DNA from: a virus
Taxonomy: Duplodnaviria > Caudoviricetes
DNA length: 44,638 nucleotides
Reading direction: 5' to 3' (one strand)
IMG/VR virus record: IMGVR_UViG_3300037692_000212
Location: 1-44,638 of that record
Position numbers and translations under genes: made by a program. The notes beneath the pieces were generated by a model. That model did no database searches. It was not told the DNA's origin and saw only the letters and a program-made list of their open reading frames with translations. Positions 15,304-29,734 of the stretch are shown piece by piece; position 1 is the first letter of the stretch, and the number at the start of each line of letters is the position of its first letter.

Positions 15304-15312
15304 TGCTACACT
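15304..15312 (+). promoter_or_regulatory. Extended -10 promoter for the capsid gene
   Basis: TGcTACACT in the 215-bp gap before the capsid gene. Confidence 0.5.
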
Positions 15313-15425
15313 CCGCCACGTAGCGGGTTTGACCCAACTTGATGCTCCATAGGGGCCTACGGGAACGCCGCCCATTCGGAACCACCCCCCGTTCAGTGAA
15401 CCCCCCCTTTTTAGATTGGAGCATT

Positions 15426-17039
15426 ATGGATGAGAAGTTTCTCGAGCTGCTCGCAAAGCTCGACGAAGATATCGCCTCCCTGTCGAACGATGAACTGGTA
15501 GAGGCCCGCCACGGTCTTGTCGAAGCCGGGAAGCAGTTGGGCGCCGACATCAAGGCCGGTGAGGTCGAGGACGCCGAGAAGGCGTTGGAGGATGTGGACC
15601 GTCTCGCCGCTGCAGTGAAGGCGATCGACACCGAGTCAGAGACTCGCACCGCTGCGGCAGCCGAGACCGACGCGAAGCTGGCCGAATCAATGTCTGTGTT
15701 CGACGATGAAGCGACCGAGCCTGTTGAGGAGACCGAAGAGGCTGTGGCCGAGGAGCCGCCGACAGAGGCGAAGGCAAAGGTGGCGTCTGTCGCCGACATT
15801 GCCCGTCGGCGCAAGCCGCCCGCCCCGCAACCGGCCCGCCCGTTGGTGGCGTCCGCAGTCGGTGGCAGCGGGTCGACCCAGATGGGACAGGCGTACGGTG
15901 ACCACACCGAACTGGCGCAGGCCATGTGGGATGCGCATCGGCGAGGCCCCAACGGCGCGCAGACGGTGGCGAGGGTCCGACTTGACACGCCGTTCCAGCT
16001 CGGCTCCGATGAGGAAGCAAACTACAACCTGGTTGAGCAGGTCAAGCGCGACTATCAGCGGGAAGCTGCGTCGGCGATGGACGCCGGCCGACCGTTGGCA
16101 ACTGTCGCTGCCGGGTTCTGTGCCCCCGCCCAACCCGTCTACGACTATCTTCAGGCCGGAAGCCGCGACGGGATCTTCACCGCCCCAGAGTTGACGGCGT
16201 CCCGTGGCCGGTTCACGTTCCCGGAGCTGTTCAACATCCGTGACCTGCAAGTCCAGAACGGTGTCGCGTGGGAGTCCACGTCGACAATGGACGAGGACGC
16301 GGTGGAGAAGCCGTGCTACACGGTTGCGTGTGGCGACGGGATCACCGCCCAGGTTTCGGCCTACTCGGACTGCATCAAGTTCTCCAACTTCGATTCGCAG
16401 TTCTGGCCGGAGCGGGTCACCCATGTGACCGGGCAGGTAGCGATCGCCCACGACCATGAGGTGAATCTGGCGCTCCTCCTCGACATTGTGGGTGATGCCC
16501 GCACCGAGACGGCAATAGACGGGTTCACAAACGGTGGCACGTGGGCACAGACAATCCAGTCTGTCGCCCTACACGGCGCCTACGTAAGGAACCGATACCG
16601 TCTGCCGATCAACTCGGTGCTGGAGGCGATCATCCCCGCCTACGTGCTGGATGCTCTGATCGCTGATCAGGTCGCCCGGTCGGCCACCACCGAATACGGG
16701 ATGGCACGTGCCGCGGTCGAGGCGGCGTTTGCCCGTGCCCGCATTTCGGTGCAGTGGGTATATGACTGGCAGGAACTCGCAGCGGCGAACTGGCCCGCAG
16801 CGTTCAACTATCTGCTGTGGCCCGCCGGCCATGTGCTCAAGTTGAACGGTGGCACCCTCAACCTGGGTGTCGTACGTGACTCGACCTTGAATGTCGCCAA
16901 CGACTTCCAGGTGTTCAACGAGACGTTCGATGGTCACGCCATTGTTGGTCCCGGAGTCATGTATGTGACCGGTGTCAACCTGTGCCCGAACGGTGAAGCG
17001 TCCAGCAACGCTGCCCTGTCGTGCGCTGCCGGGTCGTAA
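15426..17039 (+). CDS. Major capsid (hexamer-type) protein with N-terminal acidic scaffold region
   Basis: Acidic coiled-coil N-terminus; AAGFCAPAQPVYDY; KPCYTVAC; LNLGVVRDSTLNVANDFQVFNETF; GGAG RBS. Confidence 0.9.
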   Translation: MDEKFLELLAKLDEDIASLSNDELVEARHGLVEAGKQLGADIKAGEVEDAEKALEDVDRLAAAVKAIDTESETRTAAAAETDAKLAESMSVFDDEATEPVEETEEAVAEEPPTEAKAKVASVADIARRRKPPAPQPARPLVASAVGGSGSTQMGQAYGDHTELAQAMWDAHRRGPNGAQTVARVRLDTPFQLGSDEEANYNLVEQVKRDYQREAASAMDAGRPLATVAAGFCAPAQPVYDYLQAGSRDGIFTAPELTASRGRFTFPELFNIRDLQVQNGVAWESTSTMDEDAVEKPCYTVACGDGITAQVSAYSDCIKFSNFDSQFWPERVTHVTGQVAIAHDHEVNLALLLDIVGDARTETAIDGFTNGGTWAQTIQSVALHGAYVRNRYRLPINSVLEAIIPAYVLDALIADQVARSATTEYGMARAAVEAAFARARISVQWVYDWQELAAANWPAAFNYLLWPAGHVLKLNGGTLNLGVVRDSTLNVANDFQVFNETFDGHAIVGPGVMYVTGVNLCPNGEASSNAALSCAAGS

Positions 17040-17066: not shown

Positions 17067-17128
17067 GGACGTGGAGCCCCCCAAGCCTTTCCCTATCGGC
17101 TGGGGGGCTCCCCCGCGTCCCCGTTTTC
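17067..17128 (+). terminator. Intrinsic terminator-like hairpin after the capsid gene
   Basis: GGAGCCCCCCAAGCC-loop-GGCTGGGGGGCTCC, extendable stem, then GTTTTCTGTT. Confidence 0.7.
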
Positions 17129-17137
17129 TGTTACAGT
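17129..17137 (+). promoter_or_regulatory. Extended -10 promoter of the tRNA
   Basis: TGtTACAGT, 6 nt before tRNA nucleotide 1. Confidence 0.55.
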
Positions 17138-17143
17138 GCGGAC

Positions 17144-17217
17144 AGCACGGTGGAGCAGTCTGGTAGCTCGCTGGTCTCATAAGCCGGAGGTCGCAGGTTC
17201 AAATCCTGTCCGTGCCA
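17144..17217 (+). tRNA. Initiator-type tRNA-Met(CAT), no encoded CCA
   Basis: Cloverleaf: acceptor GCACGG/CCGTGC with 1:72 mismatch, D arm GAGC/GCTC (A11:U24), loop CTCATAA, T arm GCAGG-TTCAAAT-CCTGT. Closely follows the bacterial tRNA-fMet consensus. Confidence 0.93.
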
Positions 17218-17255
17218 CGATATGTCAGATAGGGGACAGTGATGGCGGCAGGATT

Positions 17256-17780
17256 GTGATAGATGTCAAGGTATGTCGGGGTCCGGTTCCTGTACCGATG
17301 ATGGACCGCCTGGAGCCTCGCATAGACATGGGTACTCCAAATGAATGCTGGCCGTGGCTTGGCTATATCATGCCCAATGGGTACGGCAAGTTGACAGTGG
17401 CGGGGATTAGGTCAAACCTTGCTCACAGGCTTGTCTATGAGGAGATGGTGGGTTCCATCCCAGAGGGACTGACGATAGATCACCTTTGTCGCAACCGGTC
17501 TTGCGTCAATCCGAACCACCTCGAGGTAGTGACTCAGGCCGAGAACCTGAACCGATTGCCGATTGTTCACGCCATCAGGGAACTGCAAGTGGCTACAGCT
17601 ACCAAGAGGCGATTGAACCGCACCAGTCGCCACAATAGAGATAAGACTCATTGCCCGCAGGGTCACAGATACGATGAGGAAAATACTCGCACCTATCGCG
17701 ACGGCCGCCGTTGCAAAGAGTGCGACCGGATACGCTCCAGGGTTCGGTACTGGAAGCTAAAGGGGGTGGTCGGCCCATGA
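17256..17780 (+). CDS. HNH homing endonuclease (start uncertain, 17256 or 17298)
   Basis: CWPWLG...NGYG...AHRLVYE...IDHLCRNRSCVNPNHLEVVTQAEN; KTHCPQGH...CKEC. Confidence 0.92.
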   Translation: MIDVKVCRGPVPVPMMDRLEPRIDMGTPNECWPWLGYIMPNGYGKLTVAGIRSNLAHRLVYEEMVGSIPEGLTIDHLCRNRSCVNPNHLEVVTQAENLNRLPIVHAIRELQVATATKRRLNRTSRHNRDKTHCPQGHRYDEENTRTYRDGRRCKECDRIRSRVRYWKLKGVVGP

Positions 17781-18701
17781 AGATTTCTTACGTGGGCAAT
17801 TGACTTCGAACCGTTACACTCCACAGAGAACGACGTCAAAGGCGCTCTCGAAAACTTGGGCCATATCGTCGACCCGTGGCAGGAACAGCACATCGATTGG
17901 CGCCTACTGGCGGACCGCTCCAGTGATTACGATCTGGTGTTGTGGACCCGCACCGGCAGCCTCGACCACTCGGCCGATCATGTCGACGCAATCAAACGCA
18001 TCAAACCGCCACTCGTCGGATTCCACCTGGACCTGTTCTGGGGGTTGAAGGCCCGCTCCGACAGGGAACGGTGGGTACTGGAACTGCCATTCTTCCAACT
18101 CACCGACTGGCTGTTTACAGCCGACGGGGGGCATGATGGCATGTGGCGGCGGGCCGAAGTGAACCATCGCTGGTCACCGCCGGCTGTGGCTGGTAAGCAT
18201 CTTGTAGAGGTCGGTAACCGGCGGGTCGGCTTCAAGGCGCAGGTCGGGTTTGTCGGGTCGTGGCGCAACTACCACCCCGAATGGGCCCACCGCAAACAAC
18301 TGGTGCAATGGCTGAGTCGCAACATTGCGGGCTTTCGCGAGTGGGAGGGCGGTCTACGGGGCCAAGACCTGGCCGACCTGTACGCGACAGTGCCGATCCT
18401 CATCGGTGACTCGTGCATGCTCGGTCCCCGCTACTGGTCTGACCGTATCCCAGAGACACTCGGCCGTGGCGGGTTTCTGCTGCACCCAGAGCAGGAAGGG
18501 CTGCGGGACCATTTCCCGGAGGGCACATTGGTGACCTGGCCGCTCGGCAACTTCGGTGATCTGCGTTGGCTCATCGACTACTACCAGGACCATGAGGGGG
18601 AACGGGCTGACATTGCGAAAGCGGGTAAGGCGTGGGTGGCGCAACATCACACCTACGAGGTACGGTTGCAGTGGGTGCTCGAAACGATAGGGGTTGGGTG
18701 A
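17777..18701 (+). CDS. Glycosyltransferase (CgeB/Glyco_trans_1_2-like GT-B), interrupted by TGA and a +1 shift after codon 8
   Basis: MKISYVGN* then, in the +1 frame, FEPLHSTENDVKGALENLGH...YWSDRIPETLGRGGFLLHP...IAKAG...HHTYEVRL. Confidence 0.8.
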
Positions 18702-19426
18702 TGACTGACACATTGATGAACGGCCGATGGACGCTGAACCTACCCGACCACCGAGCGACACAATGGGCGAACGGCTGGGAGGTGGCACGCCTCAACGACA
18801 TGGCCGACCGGATCAAACCTGGCATGACCATCATCGACGTGGGCGCTGAGGAGGGTGACATGTCGGCCCTGTTCGCCCAATGGGCAGGCCCCGATGGGGC
18901 GATGATCCTCGTCGAACCGGCCGTGGTCAAGTGGCCGGGTATCCGCTACATGTGGGAACACAACGACGGGCTGGCCCCGGTGTACCGGTGGTGGGTCGGG
19001 TTCGCAGCCCGTGACACGTTGTATGAGCCGCCACACATCAATGAACCGTGGCTGCGTGGCTTGGAGCTGCTAGGCTGGCCGTCTGCCGCCTGGCTCGACA
19101 TCAGCCCCGAAGGGCGGTTTCACCACCTCGCCCAAGAAGCCGACGCAATACCACGCACCAGACTCGACGACCTGATGCCCGCCTATCGGCGCGTCGACGT
19201 GATCACCATGGACATTGAAGGTGCGGAACTCGAAGCACTCTACGGCGCCACACGAATCCTTGACGAAGCCCGTCCGATCGTGTGGGTGTCGATCCATCCC
19301 GACTTTATGAGAGACATGTATCATCAACACCCCGACGAGCTGTTCGCGTTGATGGAGTCGCACAAGTACACGTGGGAGGATCTCGGCCGGGACCACGAAT
19401 GGCATGTCAGGTTCGACCCTCGATGA
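18701..19426 (+). CDS. FkbM-family SAM methyltransferase
   Basis: IIDVGAEEG, LVEP, RLDDL, VITMDIEGAELEALYGA. Confidence 0.88.
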   Translation: MTDTLMNGRWTLNLPDHRATQWANGWEVARLNDMADRIKPGMTIIDVGAEEGDMSALFAQWAGPDGAMILVEPAVVKWPGIRYMWEHNDGLAPVYRWWVGFAARDTLYEPPHINEPWLRGLELLGWPSAAWLDISPEGRFHHLAQEADAIPRTRLDDLMPAYRRVDVITMDIEGAELEALYGATRILDEARPIVWVSIHPDFMRDMYHQHPDELFALMESHKYTWEDLGRDHEWHVRFDPR

Positions 19427-20199
19427 AACTGGCCCTGTCGGACGCAGACATAATGTGGACACGCTGCCGCTCCGGGCATATCCGCCACGACCACCAGTTG
19501 ATGACGACCAGCCGCGGCCTGCACCGCGGTCTGGATCTGCCAGACCGCCGGATGATGATTTACGACAGTCGCCGATACATGGACCGCTACGACACGTACT
19601 GCCCGGGCCAGGACATTATCTCCTATGAGATCGATCGCACCGGCATGTGGGAGCAGGCCGAGACTCGCCTGTTTGTCGACCTGCTACGCCACTCGGACGC
19701 TGGTGTCGTGTTGGATCTCGGCTGCCACATCGGATGGTATGCAACGATCGCTGACATGCTCGGCTTCGATGTGATCGGGGTGGACGCTTCCCCCGAGAAC
19801 GTTGAGTTGGCCCGCTGGAATGTGGGACACCCGGACGCTATCCATCTGGGTGTGATCGACGGGACTGTGCCGCCACTGCCCGTTCTCGACATTGCGGTAG
19901 CGAAGATCGACATCGAAGGGGCCGAGCAGCACGCCGTCAACATGCTGGCTCCTGCCCTAGAGGCCAGGACAGTCGAGTATGTGTTGATGGAAATCTCGCC
20001 CGTGTTCAACGACAGCTATCCGAAGATCATGCATCAGATGGCCGAGTGGGGATACGAGGCATACGAGATACCCCTAGCCGCCACACCCGAGGTCGACCTC
20101 CCGCACGTCCGGGCGGCAGGAAGGATCACCGAGGTTGACGTTTGGCTGGCGACCATCGACCAGACAGACGTCCTTTTCATGCCGAAGGAGCCTGTGTGA
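19423..20199 (+). CDS. FkbM-family SAM methyltransferase
   Basis: G.WEQAET, VLDLGCHIGWY, AKIDIEGAE, LMEISP. Confidence 0.88.
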   Translation: MKLALSDADIMWTRCRSGHIRHDHQLMTTSRGLHRGLDLPDRRMMIYDSRRYMDRYDTYCPGQDIISYEIDRTGMWEQAETRLFVDLLRHSDAGVVLDLGCHIGWYATIADMLGFDVIGVDASPENVELARWNVGHPDAIHLGVIDGTVPPLPVLDIAVAKIDIEGAEQHAVNMLAPALEARTVEYVLMEISPVFNDSYPKIMHQMAEWGYEAYEIPLAATPEVDLPHVRAAGRITEVDVWLATIDQTDVLFMPKEPV

Positions 20200-20420
20200 G
20201 CGAGAGATCTCTTGAAGTCACAGAAGAAAACATCGAACGTTTGGCGAGGCTCATGGTGCCTAAGGCCCGACTCGTCGCTTATGACGAAACCTTGTTCGAC
20301 CCCCTACCGCCGGAGGTGCTTGATCGGGTGGTCGCCAGCGTCGTGTATCAGGTTATCTTGGACATGCTGATCGGCGTGAACGATCCTGCCCTATTTGATC
20401 GGTGGGAACGGGAACTATGA
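20196..20420 (+). CDS. Hypothetical protein
   Basis: AAGGAG RBS; GTGA and ATGA overlaps. Confidence 0.6.
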   Translation: MSERSLEVTEENIERLARLMVPKARLVAYDETLFDPLPPEVLDRVVASVVYQVILDMLIGVNDPALFDRWEREL

Positions 20421-21994
20421 ACGTTGACTGGTTGAATCTTCATCCCGGCACTGTGACCCATCCGGGCATGTGGGACGACACGTTCCTGCGGGAACTGCTT
20501 GCCGGTAGGCATGGACCCGTACCAGAAACGGGCCGGGTGGTGGTGGTGCCCGGCCGCTACCATACCGCCGACGTTGACCAAATCAACCAGACATTACGCC
20601 ACTCCCCCACCCTCACCATCATTACCGCAGACGAAGCATCAGAACTGCCTGCCGACCTGCTCCACCCTGACACGCCGGTATGGTGCCAAACGCTTCGACC
20701 GGGTGCATATCAGCGGGGCGTGACACCGTTCCCGCTCGGCTACCCGCCAGACACCCGCGAGTTGATCTCCCAACAGGGCTTCCCGCCACCCGACAAAGAC
20801 ATTTGGTGGTGGTTTTCCGGGCAGATCACCCATGAGCGTAGACGGCAAGCCGCCGACGCGTTGCAGGGACTACCGGGCGGTGAGTTCCATTCGACCGAAG
20901 GATTCACACTCGGACTGCCACGCCCCGCCTATTTGGAGCGGATGAACCGGGCACGCATCATCCCATGCCCATCGGGACCGGAGACACAAGACACGTTCCG
21001 GCTGTGGGAAGCATTGGCGGCCGGGGCGATCCCGCTAGCAGACGCCGCGACGCCCAGCCGCAACGACGGGTATTGGCAGGCGCTCTGCCCCGATGCGCCG
21101 TTCCCGATCGTCGAAGACTGGGGCAAGGTCAGGCCACTCATCGAAGAACTAGCGGCCGGTTGGCCACATACCGGCAACCGGGTCGCTGCATGGTGGAGCC
21201 GCTACCGCCGTCAATGGGCGAAACGGCTTACCGACACTCTGGTAGATCTAGGCTCGCCCCCACTCGACGATGCTGAGTCGAAAGTGACATGTGTGGTTCC
21301 GACGTCGCCGATCCCGTCACACCCCGACACCCGGTTCATCGAGCAGACAGTCGAGTCGATCCGGGACCAATGGCCACAGGTCGACATTCGTATCATGGTC
21401 GACGGGGTCCGACCCGAACAGTGGCACCAGACCGGCGACTACCAAGAGTACACGCGGCGTGTCCTGTGGCTTGCCGAGCATCAATGGTGGAACGTCACAG
21501 TCACCGTCCACGATGCGCATATGCATCAGGCGGCGATGATGGCCCACGAGCTCGAAACTATCTCGACACCACTGATACTGTTCGTCGAACATGACACACC
21601 GTTGATGGGGGAATGGCCACGCGACCAGTTAGTGGAGGCTGCGCTACTACCGGAAGTGGATCTACTCAGGTTGAACCATGAGCACCAGATCCACCCGGAA
21701 CACCGGCACCTACTGGCGGACGACCAAACCTATACCTTGGCCGGGTTGCCGGCAGTGAAGACACGGCAGTGGTCGCAACGGCCGCACCTAGCCAAAACAG
21801 CCCGCTATCGGGAATGGCTCAACGACTGGTTCAAACCGACCGAACGCACCATGATCGAGGACCGGATGCATTCAGTGGCGCAACGGTTTTCGTGGGGTCG
21901 CCACCGCATCTGGCTATACACCCCGGACGGGAATCAGCAACGGTCTTGGCACAGCGACGCTAGGGAAAGGGACATCAAATGGCCGAACAATTGA
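20417..21994 (+). CDS. Two-domain glycosyltransferase (exostosin/GT47-like plus GT-A/GT2-like)
   Basis: WFSGQ..H.RR, YLERM....IIPCPSG....TFRLWEALAAGAIP; then VTCVVPTSP, IMVDG, LFVEHD. Confidence 0.82.
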   Translation: MNVDWLNLHPGTVTHPGMWDDTFLRELLAGRHGPVPETGRVVVVPGRYHTADVDQINQTLRHSPTLTIITADEASELPADLLHPDTPVWCQTLRPGAYQRGVTPFPLGYPPDTRELISQQGFPPPDKDIWWWFSGQITHERRRQAADALQGLPGGEFHSTEGFTLGLPRPAYLERMNRARIIPCPSGPETQDTFRLWEALAAGAIPLADAATPSRNDGYWQALCPDAPFPIVEDWGKVRPLIEELAAGWPHTGNRVAAWWSRYRRQWAKRLTDTLVDLGSPPLDDAESKVTCVVPTSPIPSHPDTRFIEQTVESIRDQWPQVDIRIMVDGVRPEQWHQTGDYQEYTRRVLWLAEHQWWNVTVTVHDAHMHQAAMMAHELETISTPLILFVEHDTPLMGEWPRDQLVEAALLPEVDLLRLNHEHQIHPEHRHLLADDQTYTLAGLPAVKTRQWSQRPHLAKTARYREWLNDWFKPTERTMIEDRMHSVAQRFSWGRHRIWLYTPDGNQQRSWHSDARERDIKWPNN

Positions 21995-22947
21995 GGGTCG
22001 GGTGTATCGCCCGCATCGACGAAACCGGCCTAGGTAACCAGGCGCTCGAGTTCGTCCGTCACATGCACCCAGCGGTTGTGGTCGCTGTCGACTTCTCGCG
22101 CCTCCCCGACGCCATGACCCAGCATCGTGGCCGTTTCCCCGACTCCACTTTGACGACTTGGAGAGGGGTCGGGTTTCACTTCGACAACCCGGCAGCGTTG
22201 GAGCAGCTTGCCACGTGTGACGTCATCTTCTCGATCGAAACGTTCTACGACCAGCGTGTCGCACAGCTCCCGGTGCCGTCGATCTTGTATGTCAACCCTG
22301 AACTGTTCCGTGGCTACGGTGCCCCCACCTATTGGGCACCGACGTCGTGGCTGCTCGACCAGCTACCGAACGGTACGAGGGTGATGCCGTGGCCTGTCGC
22401 CACTGATCGGCCGTATCGGCGAGGCACCGGACTGTTGCATGTTGCGGGTAGGAACGCGTCGTATGATCGCAACGGGACAGTTCCGGCAGCGGAGGCGGCG
22501 AGACGGACGGGCCAGATGTTGAACGTGATGCACCAGTCTGCTGATCTGCCGTCGATCAAAGGCATTAGACGGATGGGCACCGTCGACAGTTATTGGGACC
22601 TGTACGCATACGGGTCGGTGTTGGTGATGCCCCGCCGCTACGGCGGCATGTGCCTCCCGGTGCAAGAAGCACTCGCGGCTGGCCTGCCGGTGGTAATGAC
22701 TGATACGGAGCCGAACCGGGACTGGCCGGTCCGGTTGGTGAAAGCCACCGCTGGGAAGGTGCGTACGGTCGCGTCCTATCCGATCCCGACAGCCGACGTC
22801 GATATCGACGCTCTGGTGGATGCGCTGCGGGACATTGACAGATGGGCCGAAGCGAACCGGGCCGCACAGGCCGATTGGGTCGCGGCGCACTCGTGGGACA
22901 CACTCCTACCCGTATGGCAGCAAGCCTTGAAGGAGGCAGCGAAATGA
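21979..22947 (+). CDS. GT-B (GT4-like) glycosyltransferase
   Basis: TGLGNQ, LHVAG...DRNGT, LVMPRRYGGMCLPVQEALAAGLPVVMTD, HSW. Confidence 0.88.
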   Translation: MAEQLRVGCIARIDETGLGNQALEFVRHMHPAVVVAVDFSRLPDAMTQHRGRFPDSTLTTWRGVGFHFDNPAALEQLATCDVIFSIETFYDQRVAQLPVPSILYVNPELFRGYGAPTYWAPTSWLLDQLPNGTRVMPWPVATDRPYRRGTGLLHVAGRNASYDRNGTVPAAEAARRTGQMLNVMHQSADLPSIKGIRRMGTVDSYWDLYAYGSVLVMPRRYGGMCLPVQEALAAGLPVVMTDTEPNRDWPVRLVKATAGKVRTVASYPIPTADVDIDALVDALRDIDRWAEANRAAQADWVAAHSWDTLLPVWQQALKEAAK

Positions 22948-25796: not shown

Positions 25797-26453
25797 ATGG
25801 CACCTTTACCTATTGTCCTGTGGGACAACACGCAGTATCAGTCACAGCTCCGAGACAAGGTTCTCTGCAACATTGTCAAGTACGACGGAGGGGAAGGCTG
25901 TTGGGAATGGCAAGGCTCTAAGGGGCATTGGGGACACGGACAGGTTCAAGTTCGGGAAACGGCGCATCGAAACCGTAAGGTCATGGTGCATCGACTCATG
26001 TGGTACTGGGAGCATGGAGACACTGAGAAGGTGTTGGATCACCTTTGTGGGAACCCGCCGTGCTGTAACCCTCTGCATCTGCAACCGGTCACCCAACGAA
26101 CCAACACGCTTCGAGGCGACGCGCCAGTGGCTGCAAAGGCTCAGCAGACACACTGTGTCAATGGCCATCCCCTGTATGGGGAGAACATGTTTATGGATCA
26201 GGGTCGGCGCCGGTGTCGGGCGTGTAGCCAGCAGCGGTCTCGAGAGTGGAAGGAACGTAACGACTATGGACGTAGTGGGGCGGGGACTCGCAAGTATCGG
26301 TCGGCGAAGTCGGGGTTGAAGACGCATTGTGTCAATGGGCATGAGTGGGTGCCGGAGAACATCACATATCGCAAGTCGGGGCGGGGCGAGTGTCGGGTGT
26401 GTCACCGGTTGCGGCAGCGGGCCAGGTATCGGCGTGAGACTGGTTTCGGCTAG
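25797..26453 (+). CDS. HNH homing endonuclease with duplicated THCVNGH zinc module
   Basis: CWEWQG, VHRL, LDHLCGNPPCCNPLHLQPVTQRTN; two THCVNGH...CRxC modules. Confidence 0.92.
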   Translation: MAPLPIVLWDNTQYQSQLRDKVLCNIVKYDGGEGCWEWQGSKGHWGHGQVQVRETAHRNRKVMVHRLMWYWEHGDTEKVLDHLCGNPPCCNPLHLQPVTQRTNTLRGDAPVAAKAQQTHCVNGHPLYGENMFMDQGRRRCRACSQQRSREWKERNDYGRSGAGTRKYRSAKSGLKTHCVNGHEWVPENITYRKSGRGECRVCHRLRQRARYRRETGFG

Positions 26454-28514: not shown

Positions 28515-29440
28515 TGACGATCGCCCGCACCGCCCGCACATCGGTCGAGGTCCTGGTATCCCCCACCGACACGTCGGCCCGCACGGTACGCGTCTCGGTC
28601 GAGGTGCTTGTCCAGGACGTCGCTGGCAGTGATACTCTCGACGGGGTCCTGTTCACCCTCGGCCTCACCTTCCCCACCGGGACAGTCACACCCCAATCGG
28701 TGACCCTTGCCGGTGCGGCATTCACCGTCGCACCGACCTTCCCTACAGGTGCCGTCTCCCCCCAAGCTGTCACCCTCGCAGGTGCCACCTTCACCGTCGC
28801 ACCGACGTTCCCGGCTGGCGACGTCAACCCGCAAGCAGTGACAATCACCGGGACACCCCTCACCATCACACCAACGTTCCCCAGCGGAACAGTGACTTCC
28901 GACACGATCGTTGCCGGGACGCCATTCAGTGTCGCCGTCACGTTCCCCACCGGGACTGCCACGCCCCAATCGGTCACAATCAACGGGTCACCTTTCACCG
29001 TTACACCGACCTTCCCGACAGGTGCGGTCACTGCACAGGCTATGACCCTCACAGGTGCCCTATTCACTGTCCCGCCGACATTCCCCAGCGGAACAGTGAC
29101 ACCTCAGGCAGTGACGATCACAGGCACACCCTTTACGGTGCCTCCGACGTTCAACACGGGAGCAGTCACCCCACAACCTGTCACCATCGCCGGAACCCTA
29201 TTCGCCCTGAACCCCACCTTCTTCAGCGGTGACCTACAACCCCAACCTGTCACGATTAGCGGAACGCCGTTCACTGTCGCAGTTTCGTTCCCGGGCGGCA
29301 CCGTCACAACAATAGGGACCAGCGTCGCAGCTTCCGGCTACGCGACGGTGGGCAACCTGACGGCGGCGGCTGTCACAAACCGAACCACAGTTACGGTCAC
29401 GTCCCGCCGCCCAAACGCAACCGTAACCACCATCGGGTAA
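28514..29440 (+). CDS. Thr/Pro-rich fibre-like protein with ten ~23-aa repeats
   Basis: Repeat consensus PFTVxPTFPxGxVTPQxVTxxGx. Confidence 0.75.
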   Translation: MTIARTARTSVEVLVSPTDTSARTVRVSVEVLVQDVAGSDTLDGVLFTLGLTFPTGTVTPQSVTLAGAAFTVAPTFPTGAVSPQAVTLAGATFTVAPTFPAGDVNPQAVTITGTPLTITPTFPSGTVTSDTIVAGTPFSVAVTFPTGTATPQSVTINGSPFTVTPTFPTGAVTAQAMTLTGALFTVPPTFPSGTVTPQAVTITGTPFTVPPTFNTGAVTPQPVTIAGTLFALNPTFFSGDLQPQPVTISGTPFTVAVSFPGGTVTTIGTSVAASGYATVGNLTAAAVTNRTTVTVTSRRPNATVTTIG

Positions 29441-29449
29441 CATGCGGAC

Positions 29450-29734
29450 ATGGCAAGCAAAGCGATCGTGGGCGCCACAGACGTGACCAGGGTCACATAT
29501 CGGGACAGCAACGACACGGTGACCGACCCGGGGGTAGTAGTGGCGTGGGTCAAGAAACCGAACCAGACAATTGCGCAGATCACAGCTATCACGAACGTGT
29601 CGACCGGGATCTACGACGTCGCCGTAGCACTTGATCAGCCCGGCATCTGGTATCTCAAAGTCACTGCGACTGGGCTGATCACCCCGACTGTGGTCGAGAA
29701 ACGGATCTGCGCCATATCGTCGAGTGTCGCATAG
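29450..29734 (+). CDS. Small Ig-like structural protein
   Basis: DP..V...KKP, STGIY, QPGIWY. Confidence 0.6.
   Translation: MASKAIVGATDVTRVTYRDSNDTVTDPGVVVAWVKKPNQTIAQITAITNVSTGIYDVAVALDQPGIWYLKVTATGLITPTVVEKRICAISSSVA

Follow-up and report, generated by a model that had tools for sequence, protein, structure and literature searches.

Can a phage tRNA gene place its transcription start on the first nucleotide of the tRNA itself, so that no 5' leader has to be removed by RNase P? This question is raised by one tRNA gene in a phage sequence of 44,638 nucleotides, here called the window, by which we mean the whole stretch of DNA that was analysed (44.6 kb, 61% GC). The window is siphophage-like and about 70% complete, with terminase, portal, capsid, tail and endolysin genes, and its sole tRNA is a tRNA-Met(CAT) whose 5' end was placed at 17144 by both ARAGORN and Rfam RF00005. 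The initial annotation had read this gene as an initiator tRNA that is apparently transcribed with no 5' leader. We consider it probable, judging from the sequence, that this initiator-type tRNA is transcribed leaderless from A1 by its own extended -10 promoter. In the assembly check, one contig spanned 15300-17996 with no differing letters, and no variant joints were listed for this region, both from a single DNA run, a sediment metagenome that may be the window's own source. The features around the tRNA gene are as follows.

15304-15312, + strand: TGnTAnnnT promoter-like site of the capsid gene (motif scan)
15339..17039, + strand: major capsid protein gene (PHROG 777, E 6e-54)
17068..17132, + strand: GC-rich hairpin with CCCG and TTTTCTGTT behind it, probably an intrinsic terminator for capsid transcription
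17129..17137, + strand: putative extended -10 element TG-T-TACAGT, TGTTACAGT (letter check, motif scan)
17138..17143, + strand: 6-nt spacer GCGGAC, with C at -1 giving a pyrimidine/purine start context
17144..17217, + strand: initiator-type tRNA-Met(CAU) (ARAGORN, Rfam RF00005, RNAfold), predicted transcription start at 17144
17218..17259, + strand: 3' trailer with an SD-like AGGGGA at 17231-36 and a 5-codon mini-ORF at 17242-17259
17256..17780, + strand: HNH endonuclease gene (PHROG 826, E 2e-40)

The cloverleaf is supported by the RF00005 score (59.1 bits versus a gathering threshold of 29), by ARAGORN and by the predicted fold, and position 1:72 was left unpaired by both Rfam and RNAfold. 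The acceptor strands are AGCACGG and CCGTGCC with the discriminator A73, and the characters of an initiator are present in the CAU anticodon at 17178-17180, in the A1:C72 mismatch together with G2:C71 and C3:G70, and in the D stem GAGC/GCTC, which gives A11:U24. Formylation by Fmt is reported to require the 1x72 mismatch with the 2:71 and 3:70 pairs (PMC6393288, PMC5389676) and also A11:U24 (PMC4611024); in the phage tRNA these determinants are intact and every stem pairs. In the anticodon stem, G29:C41 and G30:C40, described as contacting 16S rRNA (PMC4611024), are kept and the third place is taken by U31.G39, so that two of the three GC pairs of an initiator are found; we therefore call the gene initiator-type and not a canonical tRNA-fMet. 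This U31.G39 differs from the G.U variant given for cellular initiators in PMC5389676, and may leave the efficiency of the tRNA as an initiator in doubt. It was found again in 29 viral stretches, in none of which (0/29) TAnnnT stood at spacer 6; U31.G39 was thereby rejected as a hallmark of leaderless tRNA genes. The gene has no encoded CCA, the bases directly 3' of it being CGA. In a wider view, the initiator pattern was matched by about 2900 viral stretches and the phage tRNA itself by 141 phage records. Viral initiator-type tRNAs seldom retain the full set of three anticodon-stem GC pairs (23 canonical among 80 distinct genes), and 13 different 1:72 combinations occur among them.

Downstream, the scan of the window gave no terminator-like site between the tRNA and the HNH gene. 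With the SD-like site, the mini-ORF and the HNH gene coming next, transcription probably continues past the tRNA, which would then form the 5' end of a longer RNA that probably includes the HNH gene. This arrangement, with the SD-like site and the HNH-coupled mini-ORF 14-25 nt beyond the tRNA, is what would be seen if transcription did start at A1 and the RNA acted mainly as the structured 5' end of the HNH/glycosyltransferase message, or as an anti-defence decoy; the broken third GC pair and the absence of CCA fit such a role, and phage tRNAs have been proposed to counter host anticodon nucleases (PMC10264068). However, all the stems pair, neither the Fmt determinants nor pairs 29:41 and 30:40 are disturbed, U31.G39 recurs in viral tRNAs that are seldom canonical in this stem, and CCA is reported to be absent from about half of the tRNA genes of P. 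acnes (PMC3848588). We regard a mainly structural or decoy role as quite unlikely. As to the neighbouring genes themselves, the SD-led 5-codon ORF ends in a stop that shares bases with the HNH start codon GTG, possibly for translational coupling or as the remnant of an insertion site. The ATG of a glycosyltransferase gene at 17777 overlaps the HNH stop, and this frame meets a TGA at 17801-17803 and goes on in another frame (17777-17805), which could reflect a broken gene, an assembly error or a recoding site. Between the capsid and the tail genes stands a cluster (17856-22947) coding for glycosyltransferases and methyltransferases.

Upstream, the letters reported for the promoter are all in place, with TG at 17129-30, TACAGT at 17132-37, GCGGAC at 17138-43 and A at 17144. 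A consensus scan gave no -35 match for the tRNA promoter, and the sigma-70 scan was silent on it because that scan demands a -35 box. The lack of a -35 element would be expected if the hexamer were a chance match and no promoter at all, as would the number of TGnTAnnnT sites on the + strand, which is not enriched (15 seen vs 11.6 +/- 3.3 in 200 composition-matched simulations); we dropped the + strand count as evidence, since it is within the simulation. The signal lies rather in the absence of the motif from the - strand (0 seen vs 11.6 simulated; Poisson P = 9e-6). This absence, the chance of TGnTAnnnT per site (2.6e-4 in the same simulations), the intergenic position behind the hairpin and the comparative peak described below leave a chance match with a very slight probability. 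As a separate observation, the - strand lack of TGnTAnnnT across the window suggests selection against antisense promoters.

Whether the start lies exactly at A1 is a further question. The -10 to start distance varies, and was given as 3-11 nt in C. glutamicum (PMC3890552), so that +1 could also be C17143 or G17145. An ordinary short leader, with a start 1-2 nt upstream or with read-through from the capsid gene and with the 5' end formed by RNase P, would agree with this scatter of start sites around the -10 box. Read-through would be helped by the weak U-tract of the hairpin and by the promoter-like site at 15304. The initial annotation had the tRNA insulated by an upstream terminator. There is indeed a stable hairpin (stem 17068-17119, -36.3 kcal/mol; fold of 17070-17135 with z -4.11 and none of 200 shuffles equally stable), and this stability speaks against read-through, but the U-tract is short, interrupted, 4 nt off the stem and overlaps the TG of the promoter; the terminator may therefore leak, and leadered RNase P substrates may be formed as well. 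Among positions -1 to -6, the base at -1 is C, which disfavours a start there. The remaining evidence on a short leader comes from the protein genes of the phage, from other viral tRNAs and from cellular initiators, as described in the following paragraphs.

The spacing was calibrated with protein genes of the same phage. ATG stands exactly at +1 in 4 of the 14 non-tRNA + strand TGnTAnnnT sites (P = 3e-5), and the whole window has six TAnnnT-N6-ATG sites on the + strand and one on the - strand:

29438..29452, + strand: calibrating site TAACAT-GCGGAC-ATG, without the TG extension (GGG instead)
4802, 24095, 25797, 26474 and 30826, + strand: other TAnnnT-N6-ATG starts (motif scan)

All the + strand sites open ORFs of 79-307 aa, 3-12 codons past an in-frame stop, and the single - strand site opens a 27-aa ORF. 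From this layout we infer that the six genes are leaderless; TAnnnT before the start codon is also the layout reported for leaderless genes in Actinomycetota and Deinococcus (PMC3890552, PMC4007540). Applied to the tRNA promoter, the geometry at the six ATG starts predicts +1 at A17144 and C before it, and the identical distance chosen by the phage genes argues against a short leader. That the spacer of the tRNA recurs before the ATG at 29450 had been noted from the start, and the recurrence is real; the site has no TG, and GCGGAC was rejected as a promoter motif, being found at two of the seven TAnnnT-N6 start sites only (P of about 0.002, noticed post hoc), with other spacers at the five other leaderless starts. 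Among the predicted leaderless genes there is a second HNH gene, at 25797.

We then compared viral initiator-type tRNAs at large, whose loci are partly non-independent; the statistics given here ignore kinship. An unselected sample, drawn from 3 of 64 parts, comprised 121 stretches with 120 distinct genes and had C1 in 48, T1 in 39, A1 in 19 and G1 in 14, with A1:C72 in 7 of the 116 fully parsed genes. With TAnnnT fixed at spacer 6 in a complete scan, A1 rose to 31/88 versus 19/120 in the unselected sample (P = 0.002), and A1:C72 to 13/88 versus 7/116, which is borderline (P = 0.055). For a positional profile, viral A1 initiators that carry TAnnnT at a spacer of 3-14 were taken from 58 of 64 parts, and loci L211-L300 were included so that re-used identifiers were recovered; upstreams 70% alike were collapsed, leaving 97 loci with 110 hits after ten loci (L301-L310), probably within the unscanned parts, had dropped out. 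Spacer 6 held 26 of the 110 hits (compared with a flat profile, P = 1e-6, or 1e-5 with a x12 correction), in a peak one nucleotide wide. The share was 17/38 hits in loci of GC >=0.55 and 11/20 in GC-rich A1:C72 loci; AT-richer loci had 9/72 and no significant peak (P = 0.14). Among pyrimidine-1 initiators, taken as a control (105 loci from 14 of 64 parts), spacer 6 held 12/128 hits versus 26/110 for A1 (Fisher P = 0.004), or 2/26 versus 17/38 when GC-rich loci were compared (P = 0.002), and the profile had a lower peak, of 21 hits, at spacer 5. In the G1 elongator control (TGnTAnnnT, 12 of 64 parts, 98 loci), 7/100 hits were at spacer 6 and the peak was at 9-11, as against 6/20 at spacer 6 in purine-1 initiators with TGnTAnnnT (P = 0.008). 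Because the spacer-6 peak is found in purine-1 initiators and not in G1 elongators, the layout is tied to the former, and in these sequences it does not extend to all purine-starting tRNAs. So narrow a peak, linked as it is to A1, again speaks against a short leader. The anticipated pairing of a purine at position 1 with a -10 element at this distance is thus seen as the A1 peak, but few genes have this design (1 of 19 A1 genes at spacer 6 in the unselected viral sample), and A1 by itself is no sign of a leaderless tRNA. Viral pyrimidine-1 initiators with TGnTAnnnT peak at spacer 5 (13/41; P = 2e-5), a distance that likewise places G2 at the usual start position.

The host bears on whether RNase P would be at hand. 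Matches of the capsid protein in phage records were of about 24-31% identity and came mostly from phages of Mycobacterium, Gordonia and Microbacterium, in both cases among the 25 of 872 matches listed; from these relatives an actinobacterial-type host is likely. Endolysin homologues were named from Actinobacteria, Chloroflexi and Jiangellaceae in the three of 120 listed rows that gave an organism, and a capsid relative was present in 3 of 301 Acidimicrobiia-class genomes. No tRNA was found near the capsid relatives in six viral loci (23-29% identity, within the stored flanks). RNase P RNA was present in 4 of 5 genomes of the candidate host groups, and its retention in likely hosts favours a short leader.

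In chromosomal initiators, leaders of some 4-8 nt prevail in Acidimicrobiia and in most Acidobacteriota, as a short leader in the phage would have it. Acidimicrobiia initiators had C1 in 29/30 with spacers of 10-17, the single A1 being at spacer 8, and C72 in 18/30. Bacterial A1 initiators with a nearby TAnnnT (120 loci from 10 of 64 parts) had 42 loci at spacer 5, 17 at 7 and 6 at 6, and 27 of the 42 at spacer 5 were from the Acidobacteria group as counted from record titles. In unselected Acidobacteriota (70 loci), the promoter was mostly of the -35/-10 type with a spacer of 10-14, 4 loci had spacer 5 and 1 had spacer 6, and 2 of 6 Acidobacteriota A1 genes had a -35/-10 promoter at spacer 11. 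In a Nitrospirota family (titles Nitrospirae and Nitrospiraceae; 30 loci examined among 52 matches, which came from 50 of the 61 genomes), A1 was found in 30/30 and A1:C72 in 29/30, and all 30 loci had a TTG..TAnnnT promoter at spacer 7 (28 loci) or 6 (2 loci). Chromosomal initiators in nature thus do use the A1:C72 pair, and the flip of C1:A72, rightly recognised in the phage gene as keeping the mismatch, is not phage-specific. With A1:C72 in Nitrospirota and C72 common in Acidimicrobiia, one substitution suffices for it. No rnpA over the cut-off was found in the 61 genomes of the family and no RNase P RNA (RF00010) in the six tested, but the lack of any RNase P was ruled out by HARP, the protein-only RNase P (PF08745), in 57 of 61 genomes; close promoter placement therefore occurs in cells having RNase P activity. 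The family is apparently HARP-only outside Aquificaceae. Terriglobia-type Acidobacteria have TTGAC-N17-TAnnnT 5 nt before initiator nucleotide 1, be that A, T or C (titles Acidobacteriaceae and Bryobacterales; RNase P RNA in 3/3 tested), and their initiators may start at G2 and give a tRNA without nucleotide 1. A cultured carrier of the cellular form is, for example, Edaphobacter aggregans DSM 19364.

Weighing the six N6-ATG starts and the spacer-6 peak against the scatter of start sites, the possibly leaky hairpin and the leaders of cellular initiators, we judge an ordinary short leader to be unlikely and prefer the leaderless start at A1, which stays a prediction from sequence. Under the preferred reading, host sigma-A RNA polymerase would most likely start at A17144, and the product would likely be a 5'-triphosphate tRNA without need of an RNase P cut. 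The unpaired position 1 of an initiator tRNA would be free to vary and could be the purine preferred by the polymerase, so that the open first position would become the initiating purine without cost. A 5' monophosphate matters more for elongator tRNAs. The transcript would extend into the HNH gene; host 3' cleavage and CCA addition would release the tRNA, which would then presumably be charged and formylated. The bypass of host processing proposed at the outset would thus hold for the predicted 5' end, while 3' cleavage and CCA addition are still required. Speculatively, the tRNA may supply initiators for leaderless late phage mRNAs, or replace host initiator tRNA cut in defence; translation of leaderless mRNA is reported to depend on IF2 and to be opposed by IF3 (PMC4611024).

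A broader reading would be that, among bacterial tRNAs, the initiator alone can dispense with RNase P, its promoter having been moved repeatedly so that transcription starts at purine 1 or G2. It would take in the phages of GC-rich hosts, the HARP-only Nitrospirota family and the Terriglobia-type Acidobacteriota, and implies 5'-triphosphate initiators in cells whose remaining tRNAs are all still processed; that the first base of the initiator is unpaired would be why the promoter was repeatedly shifted to start there. We put this forward tentatively, with slightly less than even confidence. RNase P cleavage is regarded as a universal step of tRNA maturation, and if the reading is true, initiators transcribed from their first nucleotide would offer a second and independent route, confined to tRNA with an open first pair, and the variable nucleotide 1 of initiator tRNAs would be explained. 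In a literature search that took in few subscription papers, we found no report of a leaderless bacterial or phage tRNA, nor any on the 5' ends of phage-encoded tRNA-Met/fMet; supplementary start-site tables (e.g. of PMC3890552 and PMC3848588) could list tRNA starts at +1. What is new here is the controlled survey of A1 and promoter spacing.

Among known systems, the leaderless mRNA promoters of Actinomycetota and Deinococcus resemble the predicted layout of the phage gene in that the promoter is -10-only and the start site coincides with the functional first base, as is also the case for the layout shared by six genes of the phage, whereas that first base is part of AUG there and a tRNA base in the phage case. 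With the E. coli-type tRNA-fMet the phage tRNA shares CAU, the 1x72 mismatch, G2:C71, C3:G70, A11:U24, G29:C41, G30:C40 and A73; it differs in A1:C72 instead of C1:A72, in U31.G39 instead of G31:C39, in an acceptor stem AGCACGG instead of a G-run and in the unencoded CCA. Phage-encoded tRNA-Met/fMet genes are a common kind, but A1 with a -10 at six bases is found in a minority of them only. A further likeness is to Nanoarchaeum equitans, whose tRNA genes are leaderless (Randau 2008, in the summaries of PMC10100707 and PMC3491384; also PMC10941002) and which is described as the only organism identified that lives without RNase P (PMC3491384). In both, a promoter at a fixed distance puts the start on the mature purine 5' end, as predicted in the phage from TAnnnT-N6-A1, and a 5' triphosphate is predicted with the RNase P cut unneeded. 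In N. equitans the promoter is an archaeal TATA promoter, the whole tRNA set is concerned, RNase P is absent and the initiator starts at an extra -1 purine. In the phage, as predicted from its sequence, the promoter is a sigma-70-type extended -10, one gene is concerned, the start at +1 is reached through a changed nucleotide 1 and host RNase P is presumably present. Since viral G1 elongators are off spacer 6, the design looks initiator-specific, unlike that of N. equitans; the phage tRNA as predicted works like the N. equitans genes, yet outside that system.
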